From the NCBI GenBank assembly GCA_016932815.1, contig JAFGCC010000015.1, positions 1,402 through 65,401 of the forward strand: a DNA stretch of 64,000 nucleotides, in the 5' to 3' direction. Below are positions 148-18,486 of the stretch, in pieces. Under the pieces are notes generated by a model. That model saw only the letters and a program-made list of their open reading frames with translations. It did no database searches and was not told the origin of the DNA. This DNA comes from Candidatus Micrarchaeota archaeon. Its GTDB lineage: Archaea; Micrarchaeota; Micrarchaeia; Anstonellales; Bilamarchaeaceae. The stretch's first letter is position 1. Each line of letters starts with the position of its first letter. The translations under genes were made by a program, and so were the position numbers.

Positions 148-215
148 GTTAATTATTCATGTAGTAGAAATCTTTATTTAGGTATTCTTAGTAAGGAAGG
201 TTCAGGTGAAACCAA

Positions 216-1736: not shown

Positions 1737-1760
1737 CATATCTCCACCCGATTTAACACC

Positions 1761-2876
1761 ATGACTAGAGCAAGATTCATCTCCCTCCCGGCTCTTCCGA
1801 GGGAGCTTGATGGGCACGTTAGGACCCCCAAAGGAGTTTACACTCCAGGAAAGGAGATGATAAGCAGGATTCTCGATGGCCACCGCCCGGGCAGGCCAGA
1901 AGCAATAATCGGCCAGGAAGGAACCCTCCAGAGATTTGCAGTAGCACAGAAGCTCCAGCGCCCAATCCTCCTTGCAGGCCCCACAGGCCCCGGTAAATCC
2001 CTGCTTGCGCGCGTATTTGCACAGAGGCAGGAAATGCCCCTAATCCAGCTCCAGCTCAATTCGGACACCACAGAAGCAAAGCTAAAAGGATACCTCTCCA
2101 ACCAGGTATTCGTAATTGAGCTGGGAAATTCCATCCAGAGCATCAAGGCAAACGTATTTGCACCCTCCCCGCTTGCAATTGCGGCTATGGCAGGCGAGCC
2201 GGTAGTCCTCTTCCTAGATGAACTGCACAAGATGCGAGAAGGCGTAAGCTCCATAATCCACCCGCTTGTAAACAAGAAGGAGCGTGCCCTCACGATGATT
2301 GAGCTAACGGGCGAAACTTACCGCCTCCACCCGGAAACCGTGGTAATCTGCGCCCTAAACAACCAGGCCAACTACGGCTCGGGCTTTGAACGCATAGACC
2401 CGGCCCTGAGGAGGAGGTTTGCGCCCACGATTTTCCTTGACCTCACAGAAGATGCAGGAGAATTTGCAAGCATAGTGGATGCCAACATCTCCGAAGCGAA
2501 TGCCGTTGCCGGGAAAATCCCGCTTCCAGAAGGCGGAGCACCCCCCAATTTCGATGCGATAAAGGCCGGCATAATCTCCGCGGTCTGCGACTTCAACAAG
2601 ATGAAGGGCACTCACATGCGCGCAAGGGAAGGGGACATCTCCGACCAGGTCGTTTTCGAAGGCGGGCTTGACGAAGAGGCCGTAGAAGGGGTAATAGAAA
2701 AAATCACCCCGGATTCGGTCATTGCCGCCCTTGAGTTCATACAACTGGGAGTCGATGTGCGCACCGCAGTAGAAGAGTGCATAGTAAACCCCATAGTGCG
2801 CCAGTTTGGCGCAACCGTGACCTCGCTGATAAGCTTCTTCGAAGGCAAGAAGGCATTTGGCGACCAGGGCAACTAG
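1761..2876 (+). CDS. MoxR/AAA_5-type AAA+ ATPase (CbbQ/NorQ/GvpN-like)
   Basis: 371 aa. Walker A is LLAGPTGPGKSLLARVF (1977-2000). Walker B is VVLFLDELHKM. Sensor-1 is VVICALNN. DPALRRRF is the typical MoxR/AAA_5 Arg motif. The VWA gene follows directly. Confidence 0.85.
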   Translation: MTRARFISLPALPRELDGHVRTPKGVYTPGKEMISRILDGHRPGRPEAIIGQEGTLQRFAVAQKLQRPILLAGPTGPGKSLLARVFAQRQEMPLIQLQLNSDTTEAKLKGYLSNQVFVIELGNSIQSIKANVFAPSPLAIAAMAGEPVVLFLDELHKMREGVSSIIHPLVNKKERALTMIELTGETYRLHPETVVICALNNQANYGSGFERIDPALRRRFAPTIFLDLTEDAGEFASIVDANISEANAVAGKIPLPEGGAPPNFDAIKAGIISAVCDFNKMKGTHMRAREGDISDQVVFEGGLDEEAVEGVIEKITPDSVIAALEFIQLGVDVRTAVEECIVNPIVRQFGATVTSLISFFEGKKAFGDQGN

Positions 2877-2883
2877 CTTCTAG

Positions 2884-5130
2884 GTGGTGCCAATCGCCCA
2901 AAAGCCCAGGGAGCCGGGGCACTCAAAGCCCCCCACCCCACAACGGAAACAATTCCCAAAAGTGCGGCCCCTAGACGAATCCAATCCCATAAACAGGAAC
3001 CCCCGCCTGCTAAGCCACAGCGAGAAGAAGGCGTTCTACATCCAGGAATGCACTTACGAGGCGCACAGGAACGAGTGCCACCTTACCATGAGCTACCTCG
3101 AATTGCCGGAAGTGGCGGATGCCCTAAACCGCGCAACCCTTGAGCAGCTAATAGACCTCCTAGGATGCTTAGAGGTGCTAAAAGACGACAACCTCGCCCA
3201 CCTCATAGTTGCCGCATTCGAAGAATACGTTGACCGCAGGATTCTCTGGTACCCCTTTGTTGCAAAAGACGTTGCCCCTTATGTCGCAAACGACGGAATG
3301 ACAACCCTCTTATACATGGAATCGGACGAGAAATTCCGCTCGTATGTGGAGCGCTTCGAAAAGCACGCAGTAACCCTGCTCGAAGCCGAAACCAGGCTTG
3401 GCCTTAGTGCGATGCTGAGGATGTTTTCCGGCCGGCCGCTTTTTATCTCACCTTCACCCACTTCGGGGTTCTCGACAACCCCGGATGGGGCAGTAAACCT
3501 CCCCCAGGTTTACATGGCGCATGATGACAAAACCGCAAACCTAGAAGGGTACAAGCGCTCAAGCCTGCATGAGCAGTCCCACCACAAATACAATTCCTTT
3601 AGGGTTAACCTGCACCCGGACGTTTTCGATTATGCGGCAATCGGCCTAGAATTCGTGCGCATGGGAGAAGACGGCAAAATCCTAATCATAAAGAAAGAGG
3701 AAAAGGAATACGAAGTAAGCAAGACCGAGCACATAGTGGCCCTCTGCGAAAAGCCCGGGCTCCTAAAGCACCTCTGGAACGTCCTCGATGACCGCAGGGT
3801 GGACACCCAGCACACTTCAAGCTATCCCGGCCACGCCCCACTATACGAGCGCGACCACGAGCGGATTCTCGCTTCCGATATCCGCAAGGAAATAACCGAC
3901 GATGCTGCGGGCATGCACGAAGCCTTCCTGCAGGTAATCCTCTGCGGAAAGACGAAAAGCCCCATCCCGCCCGAAGTCAACAAGAAGCTGGAGCCCGTAT
4001 GGGAGCTTGCAGGCAGGCAGAACCTCAACGCCCCGGATGCAACAGACTGCTTCCATATCGCAATCCAGATGTGCAAATATTTCCCAGATGATATCCCAGA
4101 AAACCAGGAATACAAGGGCGGCTCCGGGACCAAGACCACCGACGTGTCCGATGGGCAGACGGTAATAGAGGCGCCTCCCGAAGTAGGGGGCAAGAACGAT
4201 GAGGGAGAGCCCAAGCCCAAACCCAAGCCCGGAGATGGCAATGAGGGCAAGCCCTCAAAGGATTTCAAGTACGATGCCAACACTCCCGGAGGAAAAATCC
4301 GCGGAGGCTGGCAGGTAAAGGAAGTGCCCCCGAAATCCTGGGAGCCGGTTTCGGTTCCCCCAAGGATTTCTTCTGCCATAAACCGCGTCTTCCGCTTATT
4401 CAGGAAAGATGAGAATGCACTAATGCGCCCACTCGATTCCGGGGACCCGGACATAGAGTTGCTTGAAGAGCACAACAGGATGGAGGAAGCGGGGATAATC
4501 CTGCCTCCCGACTATTATTCGGGTGTGGACCACACAAGCCGCAGCGTATGGCTAACCCTCCTAGTAGACCTCTCAGGAAGCATGGGCGAAGCCACGGACA
4601 AAGAGAGCAAGCTCGGCCGCGCCCTCTCAGCCGCAAAGGGAATAGAAGACGGCGCCGCCATGCTCAAAGACGATGTTCTTACCTTAGGCTTTGGGGGGCA
4701 CAACCCAACCGAAATATGCATAGTCGGCTGCCCTGGAAAGCCAATCCGCGCACCCATCGGAGTCACAGGCTCCACCCCACTTGGAGGCGCAATAAGGCAC
4801 GCGCACGCGCGCACAGAAGAAGCGCGCAGGGCAAAGGCCAAGAAGGTTGCCCACATGATTGTTTTGACCGATGGCCAGCCGAACGTGTGCCCAGGCGATG
4901 ACCCCACCTACGATTCAATGAAGGCGGTCTCCGATTCGCGCAAGAGCGGAATCCCGGTATTCGGCATAATATTTGTGGGCAACGAGGAAGAGGAGGCACG
5001 GTACAGGGAAACCTACAACAAGATTTTCGGCTTCGGCAACTACGTTGTGCTCCGCGATGCGGAATCGCTTGCGCGCATCCTAAAGAAATACTACCAGAAG
5101 AACTTGCTTTTGCAGGGGGAAGTTCCATGA
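2884..5130 (+). CDS. VWA-domain protein with an N-terminal HExxH motif (DUF2201-like putative metallopeptidase plus VWA); MoxR partner
   Basis: 748 aa from GTG 2884; an alternative start is ATG 3088 (MSYLELPEV). HExxH is LHEQSHH at 3568-3582. The middle linker is low-complexity and Pro/Lys/Gly-rich (GEPKPKPKPGDGNEGKP). The C-terminal VWA domain has MIDAS residues: LLVDLSGSMG (DxSxS at 4567-4581), TGSTPLGGAI and MIVLTDGQPN. Its stop overlaps the start of the first HEAT gene (ATGA at 5127-5130). Confidence 0.8.
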   Translation: MVPIAQKPREPGHSKPPTPQRKQFPKVRPLDESNPINRNPRLLSHSEKKAFYIQECTYEAHRNECHLTMSYLELPEVADALNRATLEQLIDLLGCLEVLKDDNLAHLIVAAFEEYVDRRILWYPFVAKDVAPYVANDGMTTLLYMESDEKFRSYVERFEKHAVTLLEAETRLGLSAMLRMFSGRPLFISPSPTSGFSTTPDGAVNLPQVYMAHDDKTANLEGYKRSSLHEQSHHKYNSFRVNLHPDVFDYAAIGLEFVRMGEDGKILIIKKEEKEYEVSKTEHIVALCEKPGLLKHLWNVLDDRRVDTQHTSSYPGHAPLYERDHERILASDIRKEITDDAAGMHEAFLQVILCGKTKSPIPPEVNKKLEPVWELAGRQNLNAPDATDCFHIAIQMCKYFPDDIPENQEYKGGSGTKTTDVSDGQTVIEAPPEVGGKNDEGEPKPKPKPGDGNEGKPSKDFKYDANTPGGKIRGGWQVKEVPPKSWEPVSVPPRISSAINRVFRLFRKDENALMRPLDSGDPDIELLEEHNRMEEAGIILPPDYYSGVDHTSRSVWLTLLVDLSGSMGEATDKESKLGRALSAAKGIEDGAAMLKDDVLTLGFGGHNPTEICIVGCPGKPIRAPIGVTGSTPLGGAIRHAHARTEEARRAKAKKVAHMIVLTDGQPNVCPGDDPTYDSMKAVSDSRKSGIPVFGIIFVGNEEEEARYRETYNKIFGFGNYVVLRDAESLARILKKYYQKNLLLQGEVP

Positions 5131-5813
5131 AGAACCCCATTTCGTATTTCAGGGAGTTGCTCCTCTCTTTCAGGCTGAAGGTGCTAGAGCGCGACCTGAT
5201 GCTGGCAGATGCAGGATACCAAATGCCTGGCTCCCGGATAACAAAGCAGATAAATTCCATAGGTGCCCCTGCAATTGAACTGCTCTCAAGGCGCCTAAAG
5301 AGCAAAGAGAAAATAACGCGGGGCAACGCATCATTCTTTTTAGGCAAAATCTTCAATCCGCTTGCCGTGCCGGCTTTCATTGATGCATTGAATCCGGAAG
5401 ACAGCGAAGTGCGGATTTCCGTTGCGGTTTCCCTGATGGTGCGGGATGATGCGCGTGCCGTGCGCCCGCTAATAATCTCCGCTATATATGACTGCGACAA
5501 AAAAGTCAGGCAATGGTCCAGGGCAGCACTTGAGAGGACTACGCCTTCGGGCCCTGGGGATTTGCGCTTCCTCCAAAAACACATCCGGATTTATGCAGGG
5601 GATGAGGGGCAGCCTGCGGATGCGGTACGGCGCGAATTAAACGAACTTGGGAAGCTCTATGTTTTCATGGCTGCCATGCTCACAGACAAAGGCAGGCAGG
5701 AATACGAGGGGATGCGCAAGCCCCCGCGCACTTTCAGGAGGCGCCATAATCAGGCGGGCCGCCATTCTTCGGCACTAAAAATGAAGGCGGCAATCGGAGG
5801 TGCGCGAGCATGA
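5127..5813 (+). CDS. HEAT-repeat paralog 1 of 12 (short form, MKNP-type N-terminus)
   Basis: 228 aa. HEAT/PBS-lyase-like repeats include AVPAFIDALNPEDSEVRISVAVSL and AVRPLIISAIYDCDKKVRQWSRAAL. The shared C-terminal module is GDLRFLQKHI...MRKPPRTFRRR...LKMKAAIGGARA. ATGA overlaps occur at both ends. Confidence 0.85.
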   Translation: MKNPISYFRELLLSFRLKVLERDLMLADAGYQMPGSRITKQINSIGAPAIELLSRRLKSKEKITRGNASFFLGKIFNPLAVPAFIDALNPEDSEVRISVAVSLMVRDDARAVRPLIISAIYDCDKKVRQWSRAALERTTPSGPGDLRFLQKHIRIYAGDEGQPADAVRRELNELGKLYVFMAAMLTDKGRQEYEGMRKPPRTFRRRHNQAGRHSSALKMKAAIGGARA

Positions 5814-7333
5814 TGAATCCCCTAACTGCGCTAAAGATCCGCCGTTTTATCGGGGAGTTCGTTCAGGATAAGGAGCACGCGGAAATCGCAATCGAAGGCC
5901 TGGCACTAATAGGGGAGCCCGCAATCCCCGCACTCCTCAACGCGATTGAAACCGGCGACCACTCGCTAAAGGCCCACTCCATGCGGGCGCTTGGGGAAAT
6001 GGGCAGTTCCGCAGTGTCCGCCGTCCCCGCCCTGCTCAAGGAAGCAAACGACAAGGAGAGCGAAGAGAGGTACAATGCGATAGAAGCCCTTGGGAAAATA
6101 GGAAGCCCTTTGGCATTGGATACGCTTTCTGCCGCGCTAAAGGAAGGGAACTCGCGTATAATAACCAAAGCCGCTGCCCATGCACTGCAGAACATGGGCG
6201 CTTGCGCATCCAATCACCTACTTCCAATAGCCCTAAGTGAAGAATATGCGGCAGGGGAAGCCGGGAAGCTGGCAGCAGAAAGCCTCAGGGACGCAAGAGA
6301 TTCGTCCCTTGCCCCAAAACTCATAGGCGCAATGGAGAGCCACAATCCGCATGTCCGCGCAAACGCCGCCAAAGCCCTTGGGGGAATGGATTTCCCAACC
6401 GTGCCCCTTGCACTCGCCGTTGTGCTAAAAGACGAATCGCCAATAGTCAGGGCGGAAGCGGCAGCGGCATTTGGGGAATTGAGGGTTCCCCCTCCGGAAA
6501 TCGCCCCATTGATTACCGCCCTAAATGACCCTGTTGCCAAAGTGCGCAAAAACGCTGCCTGGGCCTTGGGAGAATTAGGCGATTCCCGTGCAGACAGCCC
6601 GCTTATTGGCGCCCTCAAAGACGAGGACGCGGAAGTAGTGCTCGCTTGCTGCGATGCTTTGGCGAAGCTAGTGAGCAGTAAGGCAGTGCCGCATCTATCA
6701 AAACTGCTAAATGGCGCAAACACGAAGTTCAGGGATGACGCAGCGTACGCGCTAAAAGAAATCGGGGAGCCTGCTGCCAAAACGTTCGTTGCGGCCCTAA
6801 AGGACGGCAATGAGGAATTGAGGGCAATATCTGCGGAGGCACTTGGGAAGATAGGCTGCCATTATGGGCTTTCTGCCCTGGTCAATTCCCTTTATGATGA
6901 TAGCCCCAAAGTGAGGGCCGCAGCAGCAGAAGCATTGGGGAAAATAAACTCGGTTAATTCCTTTGGGAAAAAAGCGAATTCCGCAATACCGAGGCTAATA
7001 GACTTGCTGCTTGATGGGGATGAAGATGTAGTAGTCCATTCCGCACACACCCTCTCCGGGCTGGTTCCGGAAAACGTGCAGCAGCTGCATTCGCTGCGCA
7101 AAGCGATGATTATAATGAGTAAAACCAGGGATTGGAACGGGGAGAAAAAGGGCGAGATGCATTTCTTTGCGCAGATTTACCGGCGATGGGCAGGTCGCCT
7201 CGCAGGAACGAGCGCGCAAGAGCACAAAGGGATGCAGGCACCTCCTGCGAGGTTCAGGAAGCTTCCGGGCAAACCCGGAATGAACAGCGCAGCAGGAGCG
7301 AGGAAGCTTGCAATCGGAGGCGCAAAGAGATGA
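5810..7333 (+). CDS. HEAT-repeat paralog 2 of 12 (long form)
   Basis: 507 aa. It contains many repeats of the type AVPALLKEANDKESEERYNAIEALGKIGSP and DESPIVRAEAAAAFGEL. The tail is QQLHSLRKAM...IYRRWAGRL...HKGMQAPPARFRKLPGKPGMNSAAGARKLAIGGAKR. It is full-length similar to paralog 5. Confidence 0.88.
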   Translation: MMNPLTALKIRRFIGEFVQDKEHAEIAIEGLALIGEPAIPALLNAIETGDHSLKAHSMRALGEMGSSAVSAVPALLKEANDKESEERYNAIEALGKIGSPLALDTLSAALKEGNSRIITKAAAHALQNMGACASNHLLPIALSEEYAAGEAGKLAAESLRDARDSSLAPKLIGAMESHNPHVRANAAKALGGMDFPTVPLALAVVLKDESPIVRAEAAAAFGELRVPPPEIAPLITALNDPVAKVRKNAAWALGELGDSRADSPLIGALKDEDAEVVLACCDALAKLVSSKAVPHLSKLLNGANTKFRDDAAYALKEIGEPAAKTFVAALKDGNEELRAISAEALGKIGCHYGLSALVNSLYDDSPKVRAAAAEALGKINSVNSFGKKANSAIPRLIDLLLDGDEDVVVHSAHTLSGLVPENVQQLHSLRKAMIIMSKTRDWNGEKKGEMHFFAQIYRRWAGRLAGTSAQEHKGMQAPPARFRKLPGKPGMNSAAGARKLAIGGAKR

Positions 7334-8505
7334 GTGGGGAGGAGCAGTTTGACAAGCTGGTTTCAGAACTAAACTCCGGGGACCTAATAAAGGCAGTGCT
7401 TGCAGCACACAGGCTCTCCGACCTAAAAGACGAGCGGGCAATACCTCATCTTATCTGTGCGATAATGGGGGGAAACAGTATGCTGCACACGGATGCAGCC
7501 CGTGCCCTAGGAACATTCGGCAAGCCCGCAATCGCTATGCTAGCCGAAATTCTCGAAGACCATGATGCCAGGGCAGCCCATGAAGCCGCAAAAGCCCTAG
7601 TGGAAATTGGGAACCGCGAATCGCTTCCCGCCCTATGCAAAATCGCTCTGGGAAACTGGGACCCGGCAATTAGGATACCGGCTACCCATGTCCTTGGGGA
7701 GATTAGGGACATCTCCGCAGTACCGACCCTTTTTGCGATAATGGACCTAGAAAGGGAAAGGGAGGGAAGGCCCGCAATAACAATGCGCGATGTGGAACTA
7801 GGCGAGCAAAGCCAAACCGCGCTCAATTCCCTGACACTAATTGCAAACGACCATCCCTATGAACTAGCGGCATACCTGGGGAAAGCCGAAACCTCATTTG
7901 AGAACAAAAAAAGCATACTCCCTCTCTTGGGAACCTACTGCAGGAAGGCTCCAAAGGAACTCCTAGGCTGCCTTGCAAATAATGATAAGGGCTTCAAGCT
8001 AATTGCCGCAAATTCAATTTTGGCAATTGCGGATCCTTCTTCGCTTGATTCTATGCTTGAGCTATTTGAGGCGCACAAGGAAGGAAAAGAAAGGGACGAC
8101 CTGCGCCTGCTTAATGTGTCAGCGCATTTTGTTGGGCGCATAAAAGGCCTGCAAGCATTCTCGTATTTCGCAGGGCACCTGGATAAACCCGGCTGCACTT
8201 TCAAGAATTCCATATTGGCGGGCATATCCGAATTCGACCCCTCGCCATCAGACCTTAGGCCGCTCCAGCGTGAGATAACGAGGCTCCTGTCCGTAGATGG
8301 AGAAGGGAGGGAGGGTGCGCGCAGGGACGCTTGGGATATGGAGCGCATATATTCAAAGTGGCTCTCCCGCCTTAAGTTGAAATGCAACCTCGAACATACC
8401 GGTTTGCAGGAACCGCCAAGAAGGTTCAGGACCCCTCCAAAGGCGCTTAGGAGGCACAATTTTGCGGAGCAGAGGAAACTTGCAATAGGAGGCGCAGGAA
8501 GATGA
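7330..8505 (+). CDS. HEAT-repeat paralog 3 of 12
   Basis: 391 aa, counting from ATG 7330 (MSGEEQFDKLVSELNSGD). That ATG overlaps the stop of paralog 2 (ATGA) and lies 9 nt after a GGAGG. The track ORF start at 7132 is read-through of the upstream tail in another frame. The tail is SDLRPLQREI...IYSKWLSRL...HTGLQEPPRRFRTPPKALRRHNFAEQRKLAIGGAGR. Confidence 0.85.
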   Translation: MSGEEQFDKLVSELNSGDLIKAVLAAHRLSDLKDERAIPHLICAIMGGNSMLHTDAARALGTFGKPAIAMLAEILEDHDARAAHEAAKALVEIGNRESLPALCKIALGNWDPAIRIPATHVLGEIRDISAVPTLFAIMDLEREREGRPAITMRDVELGEQSQTALNSLTLIANDHPYELAAYLGKAETSFENKKSILPLLGTYCRKAPKELLGCLANNDKGFKLIAANSILAIADPSSLDSMLELFEAHKEGKERDDLRLLNVSAHFVGRIKGLQAFSYFAGHLDKPGCTFKNSILAGISEFDPSPSDLRPLQREITRLLSVDGEGREGARRDAWDMERIYSKWLSRLKLKCNLEHTGLQEPPRRFRTPPKALRRHNFAEQRKLAIGGAGR

Positions 8506-9230
8506 AAAACCCCCTGCTCACCCTAAGGATTCATTCTCTTATGCGCAGCCTCCACCGCGAAGGCAATATCGAGCAGCAGATAAATTCGTTATCCGAAATA
8601 GGCGAGCCGGCAGCCCCTTATCTGGTCAGGGCGCTCGGGGACTCGGGAAGATTGGGAGAGAACGCGGTTCGCATATTCCTTGCCATGGGAGAGCCCGCAC
8701 TTCCGCATCTTGGCGAAGCCCTAAAAAGCGAAAAATCCGAAATCCGCTATAATGCGATTCGCGCCTTAGTAAAAATTGGGATTCCGGCAATCCCGCATTT
8801 AATCCATGCAAGCTGCCGCGGTCCATCCATAGGTGCGCGCGCAGATGCTGCGGATGCGCTAGTGGGAATGGGCGAAGCGGCCCTCCCGCAACTTCTTGCT
8901 TCTTTGGAAGATAGCTGGCTCGCAAGGGAAATTCTACCTGGGAGGGTGCTAAAAGACATAGAACCTTCCTCTCCCAACAGCCTGCGCCTGCTTGGAAACT
9001 CCATCCGTTTCTTAAAAGGGGAGCAGCTCAAAAAGAGGGCCGGGCAGCCGGATTTGGATTCCCTCATGGAAGTATATTCCAATTGGGTTTCCCAGCTTGG
9101 AAAGAAAGCAGAGGTGGAACATAGAACGTTGCAGCGGCCTCCCCCAAGGTTCAGGAATCCCATAGGCAGGAAGGCAAGGAACAATTCGGCAGGGAAAATG
9201 AAAGCCGCAATAGGAGGCGCAAAGCCATGA
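8502..9230 (+). CDS. HEAT-repeat paralog 4 of 12 (short form, MKNP-type N-terminus)
   Basis: 242 aa. It begins MKNPLLTLRIHSLMRSL...QINSLSEIGEPAAPYLVRAL, resembling paralog 1. The tail is NSLRLLGNSI...VYSNWVSQL...HRTLQRPPPRFRNPIGRKARNNSAGKMKAAIGGAKP. Confidence 0.87.
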   Translation: MKNPLLTLRIHSLMRSLHREGNIEQQINSLSEIGEPAAPYLVRALGDSGRLGENAVRIFLAMGEPALPHLGEALKSEKSEIRYNAIRALVKIGIPAIPHLIHASCRGPSIGARADAADALVGMGEAALPQLLASLEDSWLAREILPGRVLKDIEPSSPNSLRLLGNSIRFLKGEQLKKRAGQPDLDSLMEVYSNWVSQLGKKAEVEHRTLQRPPPRFRNPIGRKARNNSAGKMKAAIGGAKP

Positions 9231-9250
9231 GCGAAGAAGAAAGGATAGGG
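9138..9250 (+). repeat. Junction repeat copy A (tail of paralog 4 plus start of paralog 5)
   Basis: cctcccccaaggttcaggaatcccataggcaggaaggcaaggaacaattcggcagggaaaatgaaagccgcaataggaggcgcaaagccATGagcgaagaagaaaggatagg aligns without gaps to 10670-10782. By eye there are about 15 mismatches in about 113 nt. Confidence 0.8.
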
Positions 9251-10762: not shown

Positions 10763-10782
10763 ATGAAGAAGAGAGAATAGGC
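10670..10782 (+). repeat. Junction repeat copy B (tail of paralog 5 plus start of paralog 6)
   Basis: This is the nucleotide-level counterpart of 9138-9250. It has the same PPPRFRNP...ARNNSAG...AAIGG coding, the same GGAGG and the same M-x-EEERIG start. Confidence 0.8.
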
Positions 10783-12318
10783 AGGTGGATGAACAAGCCC
10801 CTCCCCGAAGATGCGCAGCGCAGGCTGGAAGAAACAAAGGAACTATCAGGGCTTGGGGAATCCGCAATCCCGCAACTCCTTGAACTCGCCAAGGACAAGT
10901 ACTACAAGGTGAGGCAATATGCAATCCACGCCATCTCCGAAATCGGGGGTGAACCTGCGGTTTCCGCCCTGCTCAAACTGCTAGATGGAGCGGACAGTTG
11001 TTCCAAGGGAGATATAATAATGGCGCTTGGGGCAACAAAGGAGCCTGCCGCCGTGCCTGCAATCCATGCTGCAATGGCCAATGTTTATGACTGGGTAAAG
11101 AAAAACGCAGTTTGGGCGCTAGAGAGGATGGGGGATGTGGCTGCAAAGGAGCTCCTTCCCATCCTGGAAAATGGAACCAACGGGGAGAGGATTAATGCTG
11201 CAGTTGCAATCGGGAAAACCAGGGGCACAATAGCGCTTCCCGCATTGCTCAGGGCTCTAAGGGATGGGGGCAGGTTTGTTGGGAGCAATGCTGCAATTGC
11301 GCTTGGGCAACTCGGTGACAAGAGGGCAACCCCGCACCTCCTTGCGCAGATGGAGCGCAAGGATTCTGAGAACATAAGAAACTGGTGCGCGCACGCCCTA
11401 GGGGAAATAAACGATTCTTCTGCAATCCCCAGGATGGTCACCCTGATGCATCTTGCTTCAAAGAAGAATGCCACACTGGACTTTGCAAAGGAGCTCTCAT
11501 TTGCGCTAATGAAAATGGGGCTTCCCCCTGTTTCCTGCATCCCGGAGCTATTGGAAATAATAGCCATGAACTGCATTACGGTGAATGCGGAACGCGAGAG
11601 GGTAAGCGAGTACATAAAGTGGGCGCTCCCGCACATGGGGGAACCCGCAGTCCCGTTACTCACTTCCGCACTGTTCCATCCAAGGAGGCCCATTGTGGTG
11701 CACGCATCAGAAGCCCTCTCCCAGATGCATAAATGCACCAATGTAAAAAAACAATACGGAGAAGGCTCGCCCGCAACCGCTTCGCTCTCAGAAATAGCAA
11801 CAAATCAGGAAAACCCGGTTGAAGTGCGAAACGAAGCAATCGGGATTCTCCAGAAAATAGGGGATGAACGGGCGCTTCCCGCAATCCTTTCACTAATAGA
11901 AGACCCGGAAAAATCCATACGCAGGAATGCCGCAACCGCCATGTGCGGGTTCAGGGCGGACAGCGCGACCCTCTCGGTCCTAATCGAAGCGGCCCTGGAT
12001 ACCGAGGCGCAGGTCAGGCTCGAGGCAGTTACTACTCTATCCAGGATGCCCCCAGGAACCCTGCGGGACTTGAAGCCCCTAGCCTGTGCAATCCGCGCCA
12101 CAAAGAATGCGCAGGAAGAAGGAGGGGACAGGGGCAGGGAAATGAATTCGCTCAGGGAAACATACAATAGGTGGTTTTCCCAGCTTTCTGAGAGGGCGGA
12201 GAGGAGGCATCATAATGTGCCCCAGCCTCCTCCACGGTTTAGGGCACCCAAAAAGAATCCCGGAAGAGGCAGCATCGCAGCCCAAAACAAAATCGTAGTT
12301 GGAGGGAAAATGCAATGA
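10759..12318 (+). CDS. HEAT-repeat paralog 6 of 12
   Basis: 519 aa from ATG 10759 (MNEEERIGRWMNKPLPED), which overlaps the stop of paralog 5. The track start at 10555 is rejected. The central part is collinear with paralog 7 (AIPRMVTLMHLASKKNATLDFAKEL...YIKWALPHMGEPAVPLLTSAL). The tail is GTLRDLKPLA...TYNRWFSQL...PQPPPRFRAPKKNPGRGSIAAQNKIVVGGKMQ. Confidence 0.86.
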   Translation: MNEEERIGRWMNKPLPEDAQRRLEETKELSGLGESAIPQLLELAKDKYYKVRQYAIHAISEIGGEPAVSALLKLLDGADSCSKGDIIMALGATKEPAAVPAIHAAMANVYDWVKKNAVWALERMGDVAAKELLPILENGTNGERINAAVAIGKTRGTIALPALLRALRDGGRFVGSNAAIALGQLGDKRATPHLLAQMERKDSENIRNWCAHALGEINDSSAIPRMVTLMHLASKKNATLDFAKELSFALMKMGLPPVSCIPELLEIIAMNCITVNAERERVSEYIKWALPHMGEPAVPLLTSALFHPRRPIVVHASEALSQMHKCTNVKKQYGEGSPATASLSEIATNQENPVEVRNEAIGILQKIGDERALPAILSLIEDPEKSIRRNAATAMCGFRADSATLSVLIEAALDTEAQVRLEAVTTLSRMPPGTLRDLKPLACAIRATKNAQEEGGDRGREMNSLRETYNRWFSQLSERAERRHHNVPQPPPRFRAPKKNPGRGSIAAQNKIVVGGKMQ

Positions 12319-13646
12319 TGAATCCTTTTCTTTATCTGAGGATACGGAGGCTTTTCAACGATTCCACACACGAAGCCGTATTCAGGGGAAAATGGATAAT
12401 GTCCCGGGATTACATAATTAGGGAGTTGAAGGAGATTGGCCCCCCCGCAGTCAAGGTAATCTCCAAGAAGCTACGGAGCAGGAACAGCGGGCGGAGGCTC
12501 CATGCAGCCTATTTGCTGGGGGAATTTGGCAGCCCCCTTGCGGTTCCTCCGCTAATTGAAGCACTCAATTCCGATGATTGTGAATTGAGTTGCGCAGCCG
12601 CAATCGCACTTGGCAAAATAAGGGATAAGAGGGCAACTCCGGAACTCCTCAACCAGTTTGAGAGGGGGGGCCTGCAGCTAAGCCTCGATTGTGCCCATGC
12701 CTTGGGGGAGATAGGCGATGCTTCCGCAATCCCAAGGATGGTTGGTTTGATGCGGTTTGCATCAAAGAGGGAATCTGCTGCGGATTTTGCCAATCAGCTT
12801 GCAGAAGCCCTAAAGAAACTCGGCCCCCCTCCGGCTTCCTGCGTGCCCACTTTGCTTGAACTAGGCGCCTACGGGAATTTCTCCTGCCTTTCTTCTAAAG
12901 AAGTGGCGGCATACGTGAGATGGGCGCTCCCCAGGATGGAGGAATCCGCGATTCCCATGCTGGTATCGGCATTGGCACAGGAGAATTTCCCCCTCCCGGA
13001 GGGGCAGGCATACTGTGCCAGGGAGGCGCTGCTGGGGAAGGGAGCCTCCGCGGTTTCCGAGTTGGTTTTGGCAGTGGAAAATAAGGGGAATCCCCAGATC
13101 CTAAGGGAAGATTCCATCCGCATCCTAGGGAGGATAAAAGACCCTTCTGCAGTGGGCGCATTGGCCTCCGCATTGAAAGAGGAGAGGATGTCCACACGGA
13201 TGGCTGCAGCCAAAGCACTCGGAAAGATAGGGGACTCTTCTGCAATCTCCCCATTGCTTGAGTGCATAAAGTGCGAGAGGGGAGGCGACCTCCGGGATGC
13301 GCTTGCGGAATTGCTCCAAGCGCCCTCAGATGGCGGGCAGCAGGTCAGGCTTGCGGCAGCCGCTTCTCTCTCCATGATGCACCCAAGAAGCCCCCGGGAT
13401 TTGCTTTTATTGCACAAGGCGATAGTTGCGGTAACCGGATTGGTGAGGGGGGAGGATGCAAAAGCGGACGGAGGCCCTTCGTTAAGGAAAATTTATGAAA
13501 AGTGGGCAATGCAGCTTAGCCAACTTGCAGCAGAAAAGCACAAAAACAGCAAATTGCAAATTCCACCTAGGCTAAGAAAGCCCCCCGCGCATATGAGGCG
13601 CAGGGAGGATATTTGCAGGAGAATGGTTGCAGGGAGGAGAGCATGA
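12315..13646 (+). CDS. HEAT-repeat paralog 7 of 12 (MMNP-type N-terminus)
   Basis: 443 aa. It begins MMNPFLYLRIRRLFND. HEAT repeats include AVPPLIEALNSDDCELSCAAAIALGKIRD. The tail is PRDLLLLHKAI...IYEKWAMQL...LQIPPRLRKPPAHMRRREDICRRMVAGRRA. Confidence 0.86.
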   Translation: MMNPFLYLRIRRLFNDSTHEAVFRGKWIMSRDYIIRELKEIGPPAVKVISKKLRSRNSGRRLHAAYLLGEFGSPLAVPPLIEALNSDDCELSCAAAIALGKIRDKRATPELLNQFERGGLQLSLDCAHALGEIGDASAIPRMVGLMRFASKRESAADFANQLAEALKKLGPPPASCVPTLLELGAYGNFSCLSSKEVAAYVRWALPRMEESAIPMLVSALAQENFPLPEGQAYCAREALLGKGASAVSELVLAVENKGNPQILREDSIRILGRIKDPSAVGALASALKEERMSTRMAAAKALGKIGDSSAISPLLECIKCERGGDLRDALAELLQAPSDGGQQVRLAAAASLSMMHPRSPRDLLLLHKAIVAVTGLVRGEDAKADGGPSLRKIYEKWAMQLSQLAAEKHKNSKLQIPPRLRKPPAHMRRREDICRRMVAGRRA

Positions 13647-14731
13647 GCACCCATACGGAAGTTAAGCAGCTTATTAGGGACCTAAAATCCAGCGATGCTA
13701 GCGTGAGCCTCCAGGCCCTGCACCGCTTCACTAAAATAACCGATGCAACCGCTGTTCCGGAACTGCTGCGCGCACTAAGAAGCGGAGACAAGCAGGTAAT
13801 GGATGCAGCGGGGCTTGGCCTAATAAGCATAGGAGAGCCCGCAGTTGCGCTTTTGGTTCGGGCGCTAAGGAAGGAAAAAAACTGGGGAGTCAAGTGCCAC
13901 TGTGCATATGCTTTGGGGGAAATAGGAGATGCCTATGCAACCAGGGCGCTTCTTTCTGCAATAAGGGGAAAGGACTTCCTTGTAAAGACCAACTGCCTAC
14001 AGGCACTAGGGAAAATAAGGGACCCTTCAGCATCTTCTGCGCTAGTTAGGTTGTTGGGCAACAAGAGGCTCCGGGAGGATGCCGCAAGGGTTCTGGGGGA
14101 AATCGGGGCGCCCGCAGCGCCTGAGCTTGCAAAGGCGCTAAAAAACAAGATAACAGGCTCCCGCGCAGCAAAAGTGCTCCTCAAAATCGGGGAGCCTTCG
14201 GTTCCCGCATTAATGAAAGCCCTGCAGGGGAGAAACGATTTGGCAAGGCGGCGCGCTGCAACCGTGCTAAGCGGAATCGGGGGAACTTCAACCGCCACCG
14301 CGCTAACAGACGCCCTAAGAAGCAGGTCCGAGAAGGCAAGAGTAGCCGCATCCCACGCACTAATCAAGGTCCAGGATGATAGGGCAACGCCGCACCTCAT
14401 TTGCGCCCTTGGGGATTCTAGCGCAAAGGTCAGGAAGAACGCGGCCATAGCAATTGAAAAAGCGCAACCAAACAGCATGGACGATTTGCATAATCTCCGC
14501 AGGCAGATAAAATCGCTTGTAAAAGAGCACGGGAAAGATTGCCCCAAATGGATGATAGACTCTCTTGGCGCAACCTACAAGCGCTGGTCTGCGCATCTAG
14601 GAAGAAAGTGCAGGAAGGCCCACAAGGACGGAGGGCTCCTCCCCCCGCCCAAGAGGTTCCGCAATCCCCCCGCCCCCCAGAAGCACTATAACCTGTTTTG
14701 CAGGCCAAAGAGGATGTGGAGGGCGCACTGA
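13643..14731 (+). CDS. HEAT-repeat paralog 8 of 12
   Basis: 362 aa from ATG 13643 (MSTHTEVKQLIRDLKSSD), which overlaps the stop of paralog 7; the track start 13613 is rejected. Repeats include AVPELLRALRSGDKQVMDAAGLGL and ATPHLICALGDSSAKVRKNAAIAI. The tail is MDDLHNLRRQI...TYKRWSAHL...LLPPPKRFRNPPAPQKHYN.... Confidence 0.86.
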   Translation: MSTHTEVKQLIRDLKSSDASVSLQALHRFTKITDATAVPELLRALRSGDKQVMDAAGLGLISIGEPAVALLVRALRKEKNWGVKCHCAYALGEIGDAYATRALLSAIRGKDFLVKTNCLQALGKIRDPSASSALVRLLGNKRLREDAARVLGEIGAPAAPELAKALKNKITGSRAAKVLLKIGEPSVPALMKALQGRNDLARRRAATVLSGIGGTSTATALTDALRSRSEKARVAASHALIKVQDDRATPHLICALGDSSAKVRKNAAIAIEKAQPNSMDDLHNLRRQIKSLVKEHGKDCPKWMIDSLGATYKRWSAHLGRKCRKAHKDGGLLPPPKRFRNPPAPQKHYNLFCRPKRMWRAH

Positions 14732-15606
14732 TGGGAAGGGGGGAAATAGCCTCGCTTGTTGCGCAACTGGGGGCCGGAGAATCTTCTCTTAGGGCAAAAG
14801 CCGCAGAAAGCCTGGGGGAGCTAAGGGCGGTTTCCGCAATCCCGCACTTGTTTGCGGCAATGAGGGAGGACAACGTTTCATTAACGCGCGCAGCAGGGGA
14901 TGCTCTCTCCTTGATGGGCAAGCCCGCCGTGCCGCAATTAATCGGGGGGCTCTCAGACGAGTTTTGGGCAGTCCGCTACCATTGCGCCTGTGCATTAGGG
15001 GAGCTGCGGGATGCAGCAGCCGTGGAGCAGCTCATAGCGGCATTGGGCGATGGGAGTATGCTAGGTAGGGGGGCTGCCGCAAAAGCCCTTGGGCAGATAA
15101 AAGATGCGCGTGCGATTCCCCACTTAATCAACCTCCTCTCGGATGAGCAGATTGGAAGGGAGGCTGCGGTTTCCCTATTCAGGATGGGCCGCCCCGCAAT
15201 GCGCGAACTAATAAACTATGCCAACATTGCTTCTTGGCCCCCGGAAAAAACCCCCTGCCCCGTTGCAACGAGGGCGATTGTCTTTGCGCTGAAAAAAGGC
15301 CCCCCGGAATGGAGGCGGGATGGGGAATACGATGCGGTTTTCGGGAGGAAGCCCGGGGGCGCAGCGGAACTCATCCTGCTGCACCGGGTTCTGCGGTGCA
15401 CAGAGGAATTGCGGAAACTGGGCAAGGCAAGCGAAGAGGAGGTAAGTTCGCTAAGGGAAACCTATTCGCGGTGGTATGAGTTCCTCCGCGGCAGGTGCGA
15501 AGGCGAGCACGCTTCCATGAACCTCCCCCCAAAGAGGGCACCAATCCGCAGGAAGAGGAGGCAGAATCCCATGCAGGCTAGGATGGCAACCGGGGGGAGA
15601 AAATGA
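14731..15606 (+). CDS. HEAT-repeat paralog 9 of 12
   Basis: 291 aa from ATG 14731 (MGRGEIASLVAQLGAGE), a 1-nt overlap with the upstream stop (TGATG); the track start 14698 is rejected. Repeats include AIPHLFAAMREDNVSLTRAAGDAL and AIPHLINLLSDEQIGREAAVSL. The tail is AELILLHRVL...TYSRWYEFL...HASMNLPPKRAPIRRKRRQNPMQARMATGGRK. Confidence 0.85.
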   Translation: MGRGEIASLVAQLGAGESSLRAKAAESLGELRAVSAIPHLFAAMREDNVSLTRAAGDALSLMGKPAVPQLIGGLSDEFWAVRYHCACALGELRDAAAVEQLIAALGDGSMLGRGAAAKALGQIKDARAIPHLINLLSDEQIGREAAVSLFRMGRPAMRELINYANIASWPPEKTPCPVATRAIVFALKKGPPEWRRDGEYDAVFGRKPGGAAELILLHRVLRCTEELRKLGKASEEEVSSLRETYSRWYEFLRGRCEGEHASMNLPPKRAPIRRKRRQNPMQARMATGGRK

Positions 15607-16643
15607 GCAACGGAAAGATTGAGCTTCTCCTTGAGAACCTGCAATCGAGGAATTCCAGTTCCCGCTCTTCTGCTGCGTACCTGCTTGGCCAGCGCGCTTC
15701 GGAAATAGCCGGGCCCCAGAGGGATTCCGCCGTTTCCCTGCTCATTGGGGCATTTGGGGATGAGCCTTCAATGTTGAGGGCGAATGCGGCGGAAACTTTG
15801 GGAAAACTAAAGGCCACTTCCGCGATATCCGCGCTAACTGGGATTCTGGATGATGCGGATGAGGCCGTAATGAAGAAAGCTGCAGAGGCGCTATGCATAA
15901 TGAAAGCGCGCGAAGCTGCGCCCAAACTATTGGAAATCGTGCTATCCTCAAAGGCCGTGCTCAAGATGCACAGGGGCCATGCTGCCGCAGTTGCCCTAAG
16001 AGGGATTAGGGAGCCTTCATGCGCGCCCAACCTGGTTCTTGCGTTGAGGAGCCAGAATGCCCAGGTGCGCGCCCACGCCGCAATTGCGCTTGGGGGAACA
16101 AACGTTCCGGGCGTAAATGAAGCTTTAATCTCCGCACTCAAAGACCTGGACTGGATGGTAAGGTTCAATTCCGCATGCTCGCTTGGGGAGCTTAAAAACG
16201 GCAAATCCCTGCGCCCTTTAATACGGACGCTCAATACGGATGAAGATGGCATCGTAAAATCCGGTGCCGCAAGGTCACTTGGAAAGCTAAAAAAGCCCTC
16301 CGCTGTGCCGCACCTCTTATCCTGCATAAGGAAGGGGGATGAGAGGCTAATCCGCGAAGCTGCGCAGGCTCTCTCAGAAATAAGGCCAAGGGGCATTGAT
16401 GATTTGAGGCTGCTTGCAAATGCCATACGCGAAATAAAAAAGCGCACAATACAGGAGCCCGTGCTGCGCGAGGGGCTTGGCTGCCTTTGGGAAACCTACT
16501 CCAAATGGGCAGCCCGGCTGAGCAGGATGCGCTCCCGCGGGAATTCGGGAATAAGGCCCCCGCCCCGCTTTAGGAGTTGCCCTGCAAAGTTTGCGCGCAA
16601 GCCGCCAAGGCAGGGGAAGATTAAGATGGAGGCAGGGCAATGA
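15603..16643 (+). CDS. HEAT-repeat paralog 10 of 12
   Basis: 346 aa. It begins MSNGKIELLLENLQSRN. Repeats include AISALTGILDDADEAVMKKAAEAL and AVPHLLSCIRKGDERLIREAAQAL. The tail is IDDLRLLANAI...TYSKWAARL...GIRPPPRFRSCPAKFARKPPRQGKIKMEAGQ. Confidence 0.86.
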   Translation: MSNGKIELLLENLQSRNSSSRSSAAYLLGQRASEIAGPQRDSAVSLLIGAFGDEPSMLRANAAETLGKLKATSAISALTGILDDADEAVMKKAAEALCIMKAREAAPKLLEIVLSSKAVLKMHRGHAAAVALRGIREPSCAPNLVLALRSQNAQVRAHAAIALGGTNVPGVNEALISALKDLDWMVRFNSACSLGELKNGKSLRPLIRTLNTDEDGIVKSGAARSLGKLKKPSAVPHLLSCIRKGDERLIREAAQALSEIRPRGIDDLRLLANAIREIKKRTIQEPVLREGLGCLWETYSKWAARLSRMRSRGNSGIRPPPRFRSCPAKFARKPPRQGKIKMEAGQ

Positions 16644-17473
16644 GCGGCCATCCCCTTGAGCATAGGATACGGCGCCTCCTAGCTTCCATGGGCGATGAGG
16701 AAGAAGCGGATGCCGCACTCTCCCAACTAGTTAAGCTGGGAAAGGATGCACTCCCATGCCTCATCCCAATTCTGGGGCAGGATGAATCATGGGAATCCAG
16801 GCGGGATAGCGCAATAGCGCTTGGCGCAATAGGGGATGCAGGCGCAATCGATGCATTGGTTTGCGCAATGGGCGATGAAGATGGCGATGTTAGCTACCAT
16901 GCGGGAGAAGCCCTTGCAAAAATCGGGGAGGCTGCCCTCTCCCCCTTGTTTGCGGCACTCGAAAGCGGGAAGCCGAAAACCAGGAGGAGGGCGGCACACG
17001 CGCTAAGCGGGCTTGGGGATGCGCGGGTGCCCCCCAAGCTCATTGGCATGCTCGCAGACAGCAACCCAATTGTCAGGAAAGCTGCCGCCTATTCACTAGG
17101 CAAAAGGAAGGAGGAATCGGCAATCTTCCCTTTGATTTCCACCCTGCTTGATACCGATTCTTCTGTGAGGAAAGAATGCTGCGATGCACTGCGCGCAATA
17201 GGCCCGCGGGATGCGAGGGATTTGCGCTTTTTGCAGAGGACACTCAATTGCTTGCGGCAAATGCAGGAGAAAGGAGAGGTGCAGGCACAGGATTTGCCTT
17301 CATTGGAAGCGCTGTATGAGAGCTGGGCACACAAGCTGGGAGCAGCATGCAAGGAGAACCACGAGGGATTAGCGGGAATCCCGCCTAGGACAACGAATCG
17401 TCCCCCATTTAGAAGGAATGGGCTGCACAATGGAAAAAGGGCTGCGGTATTGGCGCTGCGCACAAGAAGGTGA
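16640..17473 (+). CDS. HEAT-repeat paralog 11 of 12
   Basis: 277 aa. It begins MSGHPLEHRIRRLLASMGDEEE. Repeats include AIDALVCAMGDEDGDVSYHAGEALAKIG and VPPKLIGMLADSNPIVRKAAAYSLG. The tail is ARDLRFLQRTL...LYESWAHKL...HEGLAGIPPRTTNRPPFRRNGLHNGKRAAVLALRTRR. Confidence 0.85.
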   Translation: MSGHPLEHRIRRLLASMGDEEEADAALSQLVKLGKDALPCLIPILGQDESWESRRDSAIALGAIGDAGAIDALVCAMGDEDGDVSYHAGEALAKIGEAALSPLFAALESGKPKTRRRAAHALSGLGDARVPPKLIGMLADSNPIVRKAAAYSLGKRKEESAIFPLISTLLDTDSSVRKECCDALRAIGPRDARDLRFLQRTLNCLRQMQEKGEVQAQDLPSLEALYESWAHKLGAACKENHEGLAGIPPRTTNRPPFRRNGLHNGKRAAVLALRTRR

Positions 17474-17477
17474 AATA

Positions 17478-18419
17478 ATGGGCGAAGAAGGGAAAATAAG
17501 GGAACTAATTGCAAAATTCGCTTCTCCGGACCCAAGGGAAGCGGTGGATGCGATAGGCGAACTAAAGAAAATTGGTTTGCAAGCAATCCCAATCCTCCGC
17601 GAAGCATCCGCGTATCCCTCAGATGCAATAAGGCACTACGCGATGCTCACCCTAAGGGAGCTAAAGGATGAGCGCTCAATCCCCATAATGGCCCATGCAC
17701 TTGGAGACCTTAACTCCAATGTGGCGGATTGCGCCTCGGAAGCCCTTGCCGGATTCGGGAAAAAATCCATTCCCGCGGTGCTTGAGGTGCTAGGTTGCGA
17801 TGATATTAGGGCCATGAATTGCGCTATAAGTACGCTGGCAAAAATAGGGGAGCCCGCAGTTTCACCTCTCTGCGAAGCATATTCGGATAACCCAGAACCC
17901 ACTTTCCGGATTCGCATTGTCTGCACCCTTGGATCAATTGCGCACGTTTCTGCGGTGCCAATGCTCCTCTCAATCCTGAGCGAGAATATGGGTTGCCCCG
18001 CATCCACTCCGGGCGAAAGCCTGGCATTGCATGCGATATCCTCCCTTGGGGAAATCGGGGACGCATCCGCCCTCCCATCGCTGTTTTCGCTGCGCCTCTC
18101 AAGCAATCTGAAATTGAGGGTTGCTTCTGCGGATTCGCTTCGGGGAATAATCCCAACGAGCCCGCGGGATTTGCGCCGCCTGCATGCGGAACTGCTGCGC
18201 ACCCTCAGGATTGAGAAGGGCAGGGAAGTGAAGAACGAATCGGACTCGCTCTATATAGCTTATCATGGATGGTCGTCCCGCCTTGGGATAAAATGCGCAC
18301 AAGCCCATGAGGAGATGCGCGCACCTCCCCCCAGGCTTGGGAGAAGGAATTCCTGCCCAAGGCGCAGGAATGCAGCAGCTAGAAGAAATGTGCTGTTTTT
18401 GGGAAAAAATAGGGTTTAA
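17478..18419 (+). CDS. HEAT-repeat paralog 12 of 12 (last gene of the array)
   Basis: 313 aa from ATG 17478 (MGEEGKIRELIAKFASPD), 4 nt after the upstream stop and preceded by AAGGTGA; the track start 17418 is rejected. The tail is PRDLRRLHAEL...AYHGWSSRL...HEEMRAPPPRLGRRNSCPRRRNAAARRNVLFLGKNRV. It lacks the GGAGG-encoded GG seen in upstream paralogs. Confidence 0.85.
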   Translation: MGEEGKIRELIAKFASPDPREAVDAIGELKKIGLQAIPILREASAYPSDAIRHYAMLTLRELKDERSIPIMAHALGDLNSNVADCASEALAGFGKKSIPAVLEVLGCDDIRAMNCAISTLAKIGEPAVSPLCEAYSDNPEPTFRIRIVCTLGSIAHVSAVPMLLSILSENMGCPASTPGESLALHAISSLGEIGDASALPSLFSLRLSSNLKLRVASADSLRGIIPTSPRDLRRLHAELLRTLRIEKGREVKNESDSLYIAYHGWSSRLGIKCAQAHEEMRAPPPRLGRRNSCPRRRNAAARRNVLFLGKNRV

Positions 18420-18486
18420 AAGCATTACTTAGCATAAAGTCGGATACCTATTCTATAGGCAAACATATTTTTGGAGTGTGAGAACT

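Follow-up and report, generated by a model that had tools for sequence, protein, structure and literature searches.

A MoxR ATPase gene, a VWA/HExxH partner gene and an array of HEAT-repeat genes form a conserved gene set in a Micrarchaeota-like archaeal lineage

We analyzed a 64,000-nucleotide stretch of DNA (the window) from a Candidatus Micrarchaeota archaeon (assembly GCA_016932815.1, contig JAFGCC010000015.1). By sequence comparison, we found that 14 genes on its + strand, from position 1761 to 18419, constitute a conserved and translationally coupled set of three components: a MoxR-class AAA+ ATPase, a partner protein with a VWA domain and an HExxH motif, and 12 paralogous HEAT-repeat proteins (H1 to H12). 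The motifs expected of a motor and of an adaptor are intact. We tentatively favor the notion that these genes form one operon of a Micrarchaeota-like archaeal lineage and encode a three-part machine resembling NorQD and CobST, in which a motor-adaptor pair has an expandable set of HEAT proteins as its third component. We judge this reading to be a little short of even.

MoxR-VWA pairs are widespread and few are understood, each of those with a single client enzyme as its third partner. What is new here is that the third partner is a family of repeat proteins, with up to 12 members per operon, that is kept with the pair across a poorly known lineage of archaea with small genomes. That ~17 kb is spent on one operon suggests an important function. 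A preliminary description of the window, made from the sequence alone, had stated that no operon joining a MoxR-VWA pair to a large family of repeat-protein paralogs was known to have been described. Our full-text literature searches, with most subscription journals outside their coverage, agree with this statement: they found no MoxR-VWA pair with an array of HEAT genes and no link between Micrarchaeota and HEAT repeats.

Gene order, motifs and recurrence

The 14 open reading frames (ORFs) are located where the preliminary description had placed them (Table 1), and its account of the paralog sizes (228-519 amino acids) and of the junctions was accurate. The stop codon of the VWA gene overlaps the start of H1 (ATGA). 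Among the 11 HEAT-HEAT junctions, nine share 4 nt in the form of ATGA; at the remaining two, the genes overlap by 1 nt (H8-H9) or are 4 nt apart (H11-H12). The MoxR and VWA genes are separated by 7 nt if the GTG at 2884 is the true start of the VWA gene. Each of the 12 HEAT starts is preceded, 5-17 nt upstream, by GGAGG, GGGGG or GGTGA. Such motifs, which resemble a Shine-Dalgarno sequence, were present in 6.9% of random windows in the array, and the probability of finding them at 12/12 starts by chance is ~1e-14. This tight translational coupling suggests that the proteins are produced together in fixed proportions, like the subunits of an assembly. A TATA-like box, TTTATAAA, precedes the MoxR gene at a distance compatible with an archaeal promoter giving leaderless or near-leaderless transcripts, and would serve the operon.

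We collected related loci by context look-ups and by scans of sequence collections, including a metagenome scan with an alignment of 12 sequences. This gave 17 further non-redundant loci with usable flanking DNA. All 17 contain a MoxR gene, a gene for a VWA protein with HExxH, and adjacent HEAT-type genes; MoxR identity to the window falls to 29% among them. The co-occurrence of HEAT arrays with MoxR and VWA genes had been named beforehand as one of the points on which the proposed association could fail, and the outcome in these 17 loci favors the association. As in the window, the VWA gene adjoins the MoxR gene in all related loci whose flanks are long enough. HEAT-type genes of the other loci end in basic, proline-rich tails where their 3' end is on the contig. 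The position of the HEAT genes varies: they are upstream of the core genes, downstream, between them (loci L024 and L026) or divergent (L017). The size of the array varies as well, with nine genes in L022, at least eight in L012 and L014, seven in L021, six in L011, three in L007 and one in L004. Between the window and L001, the VWA proteins are 90% identical and the H1 proteins 85%; the next two HEAT proteins of L001 are ~31% identical to any window paralog.

Relatives of these proteins are rare. Only three homologs of the VWA protein were found with a word index among 5.8 billion proteins, and an exhaustive profile search gave 23 cluster representatives (<1e-30) among 1.84 billion. A MoxR profile matched 13 proteins (<1e-10) in 5.8 billion sequences. 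Scanning GTDB with MoxR patterns identified four Micrarchaeota metagenome-assembled genomes (MAGs), which account for four of the related loci; scanning it with VWA peptide patterns gave no matches, from which we conclude that the window's species has no representative in GTDB. The four GTDB matches and one NCBI record are labeled Candidatus Micrarchaeota or Micrarchaeia, and the NCBI taxonomy for the Micrarchaeota label is phylum Microcaldota, kingdom Nanobdellati. No relatives were found in two scans of viral contigs or by tblastn against phage records. The GC content of the locus is that of its surroundings and the neighboring genes for GlnA and the thermosome are syntenic with those of relatives (see below). 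That is, there is no sign of recent transfer.

The product of the first gene is a MoxR-class ATPase, as had been proposed. It matches Pfam AAA_5 over residues 69-220 (53.6 bits, cut-off 22, 3e-14), and its best sequence matches in the PDB are Midasin, CbbQ and NorQ. Aligned with 13 homologs, the ATPase keeps all of its catalytic motifs. The Walker A (GPTGxGKS), Walker B (DELH), sensor-1 Asn and Arg-finger (ALRRRF) motifs are invariant, including residues G73, P74, T75 and K79, D153 and E154, N200, and R217-R219.

The product of the second gene is a VWA protein with an HExxH motif, again in line with the preliminary description. Its match to Pfam VWA is marginal (24.5 bits, cut-off 23.8). Four MIDAS residues (D562, S564, S566 and D663) do not vary among 32 homologs, and T631 is invariant in 12. 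An AlphaFold2 (AF2) model, with a confidence score (pLDDT) of 81.6, has four parts: an N-domain (residues 45-400), a linker, a beta-hairpin and the VWA domain. In Foldseek searches, the best match of the VWA part was the VWA domain of NorD (9qh6_G, E=1e-13, TMt 0.72), and the MIDAS domains of Rea1/MDN1 came next. The alignment to NorD chains containing VWA plus finger spans 305 columns. The beta-hairpin is a candidate for a "finger" that enters the pore of the ATPase, by analogy with NorQD (PMC13036017). The start of the VWA gene is uncertain (GTG at 2884, 2887 or 2962) because residues 1-39 are unconserved and are modeled at a pLDDT of ~30; the gene call in a public assembly also gives 748 amino acids.

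Of the Pfam families expected in the preliminary description, AAA_5, VWA (marginally) and HEAT_2 were found, the last in 12/12 paralogs. DUF2201 (PF13203 and PF09967) was not: neither the window VWA protein nor any of the 32 family members matched it, and at E<=10 it was also missed by 17 N-domains. Pfam CobT_C was matched by 12 of the 32 VWA family members. The score with the NCBIfam cobaltochelatase model was 22.8, below its cut-off of 779.

The N-domain is well modeled on its own (AF2 pLDDT 91.8). H229, E230 and H233 of the HExxH motif are invariant in the 32 family members, as are N219, D303, R305 and D307, and the downstream motif NxxDDxRxD is likewise invariant. In the model, D303 and D307 lie on a later helix and are candidate metal ligands. 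The N-domain of the window protein had no Pfam match even at E<=10; among 17 N-domains searched, one gave a weak match to MPTase-PolyVal (E=0.027). In Foldseek searches, the N-domain model resembled, weakly but consistently, the N-terminal regions of phage "CobT-like/VWFA" proteins (prob 1.0, TMq ~0.4).

We also observed a possible second copy of part of this protein in L004, a Micrarchaeota MAG. A 208-amino-acid protein encoded 3' of the gene for a 990-amino-acid VWA protein (14139-14765) matches the family VWA profile (2.9e-11) and may have arisen by partial duplication of the adaptor.

Table 1. Features of the MoxR-VWA-HEAT locus (positions in the window)
Feature	Position	Strand	Description
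TATA-like box TTTATAAA	1730..1737	+	~24 nt 5' of the MoxR ATG; sequence reading
MoxR gene	1761..2876	+	MoxR-class AAA+ ATPase, CbbQ/NorQ-like type, 371 aa
VWA gene	2884..5130	+	VWA/MIDAS partner, 748 aa; N-domain with HExxH, linker, beta-hairpin, VWA domain
N-domain	3001..4089	+	about aa 40-402; unannotated family, possibly zincin-like metal site
HExxH motif (LHEQSHH)	3568..3585	+	aa 229-234; alignment of 32 family members
Linker	4096..4254	+	aa 405-457; disordered, charged, Pro/Lys/Gly/Glu; pLDDT <50; length differs among homologs
Beta-hairpin before VWA domain	4261..4347	+	aa 460-488; AF2 strands 460-467, 470-480, 485-488
MIDAS motif DxSxS	4567..4581	+	aa 562-566; further MIDAS residues T631, D663
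H1	5127..5813	+	HEAT paralog, 228 aa; HEAT_2 35.2 bits; C-module HMM match; 85%-identical ortholog in L001
H2	5810..7333	+	HEAT paralog, 507 aa; HEAT_2 225 bits; 45% identity to H5
H3	7330..8505	+	HEAT paralog, 391 aa; HEAT_2 78.7 bits; C-module match
H4	8502..9230	+	HEAT paralog, 242 aa; HEAT_2 46.1 bits; C-module match
H5	9227..10762	+	HEAT paralog, 511 aa; HEAT_2 180 bits; C-module match
H6	10759..12318	+	HEAT paralog, 519 aa; HEAT_2 140 bits; 37% identity to H7
H7	12315..13646	+	HEAT paralog, 443 aa; HEAT_2 124 bits; C-module match
H8	13643..14731	+	HEAT paralog, 362 aa; HEAT_2 104 bits; strongly basic body, net charge +27
H9	14731..15606	+	HEAT paralog, 291 aa; HEAT_2 79 bits; C-module match
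H10	15603..16643	+	HEAT paralog, 346 aa; HEAT_2 184 bits; C-module match
H11	16640..17473	+	HEAT paralog, 277 aa; HEAT_2 114 bits; C-module match
H12	17478..18419	+	HEAT paralog, 313 aa, last gene; HEAT_2 70.5 bits; tail without IGG (Shine-Dalgarno) imprint

The HEAT proteins and their tails

All 12 paralogs, which the preliminary description had recognized as HEAT proteins, match HEAT_2 above its cut-off (35.2-225 bits, cut-off 27.7). Their pairwise identities are 25-45%, and the array contains no long near-identical DNA repeats. Based on these two results, the array is old and is neither an assembly artefact nor the product of a recent amplification. The isoelectric points (pI) of the HEAT bodies range from 5.3 to 10.2, indicating that their surfaces are diversified. 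The best NCBIfam score, to the phycobilin lyase CpcE/CpcF and NblB models, was 89.6, below the cut-off of 220, and reflects generic HEAT similarity. No signal peptides were evident when the N-termini were judged by eye.

Two observations concern individual paralogs. The H4/H5 and H5/H6 junctions (9130-9249 and 10662-10781) are 86% identical over 120 nt, a stretch that runs from the tail of the first HEAT gene into the beginning of the second. This is far above the identity of the rest of these genes and may reflect gene conversion or a duplication breakpoint. In L002, one HEAT ORF (6698-8281) encodes two C-terminal modules (residues 276-349 and 437-527); this looks like either a fusion of two array genes by loss of a stop codon or a sequencing frameshift.

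The preliminary description had reported constant modules at both ends of the HEAT proteins. The N-terminal one turned out to be a weakly conserved first HEAT-like helix pair. The C-terminal one (C-module) stood in part. It is common to 12/12 paralogs, is ~90 amino acids long, and consists of two helices (P..DLR.L...I and L...Y..W...L) followed by a proline-rich, basic stretch (PPPRFR.P....RR); in the clade of the window it ends in AIGGA... The net charge of the last 35 residues is +7 to +10 in the 12 paralogs. A hidden Markov model (HMM) of the C-module, built from the 12 paralogs, matched only those 12 ORFs in the 64-kb window; outside it, the model also recognized HEAT genes in the three related loci that are closest. 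Searches of Pfam and the PDB gave nothing significant for the C-module. A word-indexed protein search with an alignment of 22 C-modules gave no matches, a result that says nothing about C-module genes away from MoxR and VWA genes. The part of the claim that did not stand is the extreme C-terminal end, most of which is explained by the signals that start translation of the following gene.

The tails have common properties across the family. Among 71 complete HEAT genes from 15 loci, 70% encode a PP-basic motif in the last 40 residues, compared to 7% of other ORFs, and the mean tail charge is +7.1, compared to +1.8 for other ORFs, a background that includes spurious ORFs.

We examined dual coding, which the preliminary description does not mention, at all 12 junctions of the window (5100-17480) and in L003, L007, L014, L021 and L022. 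The AIGG end is encoded by gcaATAGGAGGCgca, which is the Shine-Dalgarno motif 8-12 nt before the ATG of the next gene. IGG is missing from H12, the last gene, and from H11, after which come the gap and an AGGTGA motif. The corresponding end in other lineages is RRVRNG*, encoded by AGG AGG GTC AGG AAT GGx TGA; this contains GGAGG and the embedded ATG of the next gene, with an overlap of 8 nt. The ends RRVNL* and ..RV* are equivalent. The terminal genes of arrays lack the conserved end motif. These results independently support translational coupling along the arrays. What is left of the tail at the level of protein is the helix pair and the PP-basic stretch.

The same results dispose of three roles that we considered for the conserved end, because the last ~5 codons are GGAGG plus the next ATG and the terminal genes lack the motif. 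These roles were a diglycine end like that of ubiquitin/SAMP or Pup (...AIGGxxx), a membrane-targeting helix like that of MinD, and a mimic of the VWA C-terminus (that of NorD binds the ATPase). The case is a caution for motif hunting: conservation at the C-terminus of a protein can reflect nothing more than the ribosome-binding site and start codon from which the following gene is translated.

A possible motor-adaptor machine and its alternatives

By sequence and by modeled fold, the closest solved relative of the system is NorQ-NorD, a MoxR AAA+/VWA chaperone by which nitric oxide reductase receives its FeB. The VWA part has its best match, in sequence and in fold, in NorD, and the ATPases belong to the same AAA_5 class. 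In both systems the genes for the ATPase and its partner are adjacent, and both adaptors, ours as modeled, have an N-domain, a long flexible linker, a hairpin and a VWA domain with a MIDAS. According to the 2026 structures of NorQD determined by cryo-electron microscopy (PMC13036017), the finger of the VWA domain reaches into the pore of the ATPase and the ring is held by the C-terminus of NorD; the linker of NorD is twisted and stretched as ATP is hydrolyzed. The systems differ in that there is no respiratory-enzyme client here and the third component is one to 12 HEAT proteins. In addition, our N-domain has no sequence match to that of NorD (the profile aligns only VWA positions 623-731) and contains an invariant HExxH. 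NorQ-NorD is proteobacterial, whereas the system here is archaeal (DPANN-like).

Other MoxR-VWA systems have parts of this logic. A preprint on the aerobic cobaltochelatase CobS-CobT-CobN describes a motor, an adaptor and a client, with the shaft of the adaptor in the ring. The order of motor, adaptor and third subunit is the same here, and 12/32 family members match CobT_C. In contrast, there is no CobN or ChlH-like subunit, and the NCBIfam score (above) is far below the cut-off. For the phage "CobS/CobT-like" pairs, the resemblance is the weak match of the N-domain model to the N-terminal parts of the phage CobT-like/VWFA proteins, but there was no sequence-level match in the phage records searched. 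The Rubisco activase CbbQ-CbbO is of the same type: one VWA adaptor, which binds the client through its MIDAS, works with a hexamer of MoxR, and CbbQ is among the best PDB matches of the ATPase. The genes here have no Rubisco context, and their third component is another one. Midasin/Rea1, which remodels eukaryotic pre-60S particles, contains AAA_5 modules and a MIDAS domain that is the second-best fold match of the VWA part. Rea1 is recruited by the helical-repeat Rix1 complex. However, it is a single giant polypeptide with a ubiquitin-like-domain ligand, and we have no evidence for a link to ribosomes here.

In the bacterial vWA-MoxR ternary systems (Kaur, Burroughs, Iyer, Aravind 2020, PMC7159879), MoxR and vWA form the core, and VMAP, iSTAND, FtsH or a beta-propeller is the conserved third component. 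They resemble the system here in this three-part composition, in containing HEAT or TPR repeats and in their variable copy number. They differ in that their repeats are fused to the vWA protein at the effector position, whereas the HEAT genes here are free-standing and effector domains are absent. They are also bacterial and tied to multicellularity, and the system here is from an archaeon.

The favored notion of a NorQD/CobST-like machine can be spelled out as follows. By homology with NorQ-NorD and CobS-CobT, the ATPase would form a hexamer, one VWA subunit would put its hairpin into the pore, and ATP hydrolysis would twist or stretch the linker of the VWA protein. The remaining steps are suggested by the anatomy of the proteins. 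The HEAT proteins may hold the position of the client in the known systems (CobN, cNOR, Rubisco). Each could use the shared C-module to dock on the MIDAS site or the N-domain of the VWA subunit; the ATPase and the VWA protein are acidic, which would suit tails with a charge of +7 to +10. A docked HEAT protein might then be remodeled, loaded, or trimmed by the HExxH domain, whose site could act on the HEAT proteins or on their cargo. The variable solenoids would then serve as different binding scaffolds. The HEAT proteins may be adaptors, clients or a binding repertoire. If they are adaptors or clients, this would be a new way to diversify the targets of an AAA+ machine, and the system would contain two new domain families, the HExxH N-domain and the HEAT C-terminal module.

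Several points weigh against this notion. The HMM of the C-module from the clade of the window misses the tails of more distant loci, so that homology of the module across the family rests on the short PP-basic motif. Where the tail is most conserved, nucleotide-level signals for translation of the next gene account for the conservation better than protein function does, which weakens the case for a docking peptide. We infer contact of the HEAT proteins with MoxR or VWA from anatomy. The fast turnover of the array between close relatives fits a repertoire better than a complex of fixed stoichiometry. Finally, the HExxH motif, as judged from the alignment, is real, and the N-domain is at most a putative peptidase: the N-domain model had no fold match in the PDB at E<1 and no significant match to a solved zincin, with FtsH appearing only at E=3.7.

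It is possible that the system is a split ATP-dependent metalloprotease, similar to an FtsH in two polypeptides, in which the HEAT proteins select substrates (cellular or host-derived proteins) and the C-module is their handle. The invariance of HExxH and NxxDDxRxD in 32 homologs would suit such a protease, and the model of the N-domain has a zincin-like topology, with strands, the HExxH helix and a later helix carrying the invariant Asp. The diversified surfaces of the HEAT bodies and the range of array sizes between lineages, from 1 to 12, would suit a set of substrate adaptors. But the N-domain matches no Pfam peptidase and no peptidase fold in the PDB, given the E value for FtsH above. Furthermore, MoxR-class proteins are known as remodelers and metal-insertion chaperones and not as unfoldases that feed proteases (PMC13036017; PMC7159879). 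We consider a split protease unlikely, yet worth keeping in mind.

Alternatively, the genes could be a conflict or host-interaction system like the bacterial vWA-MoxR ternary systems, with the HEAT proteins as a repertoire of sensors or decoys under diversifying selection and MoxR-VWA as the switch. The fast turnover seen between the window and L001 and the wide variation in HEAT copy number between lineages are consistent with such selection. The taxonomically labeled relatives are DPANN (Micrarchaeota), which published work describes as host-dependent, and repeat domains of the HEAT or TPR type occur in the systems of Kaur et al. 2020 (PMC7159879). On the other side, Pfam scans of the 14 proteins found no VMAP, iSTAND, FtsH, beta-propeller or effector domain, and PADLOC yielded only generic P-loop and HEAT matches. 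Housekeeping synteny, host-like GC content, the absence of relatives from the viral and phage collections searched, and the lack of an evident signal peptide in N-termini judged by eye also argue against it. We regard a conflict system as distinctly improbable. We give the same low weight to a programmable machine for remodeling or proteolysis in DPANN of the Micrarchaeota lineage, in which MoxR and the zinc-site VWA protein would be re-targeted by expandable, fast-turnover HEAT adaptors through one C-module and might handle host-derived or changing substrates.

Slightly less probable still is that the HEAT proteins are the building blocks of a scaffold. MoxR-VWA would be the assembly chaperone, similar to GvpN in gas vesicles or Rea1 in pre-ribosomes, and would place or remove HEAT proteins on a structure associated with nucleic acid or membrane, with the basic tails as anchors. 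Tails that are basic and proline-rich are found in 59/71 family members, translational coupling is typical of subunits that assemble together, and the VWA domain also resembles the MIDAS domain of Rea1. However, no partner structure is encoded nearby, and the neighboring thermosome gene reflects lineage synteny, being absent from other clades. Lastly, it is very unlikely that the HEAT array is a coincidental neighbor with no functional relation to MoxR and VWA: HEAT_PBS-type proteins are common in prokaryotes without MoxR, but adjacency is kept in 17/17 other loci, to 29% MoxR identity and despite the varied gene order, and the VWA stop overlaps the first HEAT start.

Neighboring genes and other observations

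The preliminary description had characterized the flanking genes as housekeeping genes, and we identified them by Pfam as GlnA upstream and the thermosome downstream. Dihydroorotate dehydrogenase, a primase subunit and CTP synthase are encoded farther along the window. The thermosome of the window is 93.5% identical to that of L002 and 71.5% identical to that of L007; the corresponding values for MoxR are 59% and 33%. We considered the thermosome as a functional partner and rejected it. It adjoins the system, along with GlnA, only in the clades of the window and of L007 and not in other clades, as expected from lineage synteny.

Between H12 and the thermosome gene (18404-18486), a TATA-like box, TTTAAAAG, overlaps the H12 stop, and a Shine-Dalgarno-like sequence, GGAGTGTGA, precedes the ATG of the thermosome gene at 18487. 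It is therefore probable that this gene is transcribed from a promoter of its own and is not a member of the operon.

The window contains an archaeal RNase P RNA (28528-28782, - strand, 98 bits) and a tRNA-Arg(CCT) (60531-60607, - strand), and no other RNA genes were found in it. The RNase P RNA identifies the window as part of an archaeal chromosome. Four ORFs encoding 242-498 amino acids had no Pfam match (20304-21032, 21051-22547, 36059-37531 and 50258-51736). The first two, just 3' of the thermosome gene, also had no NCBIfam match. A DHH/DHHA1 protein similar to RecJ/GAN (906 amino acids, 30204-32924, + strand) contains a LAGLIDADG_3 domain, which suggests an intein. Finally, in L027, four paralogous hydrophobic proteins of 337-408 amino acids, probably membrane proteins, are encoded directly 5' of MoxR (69-4572). 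They had no Pfam match, and each ends in a similar ..LTRLI motif.

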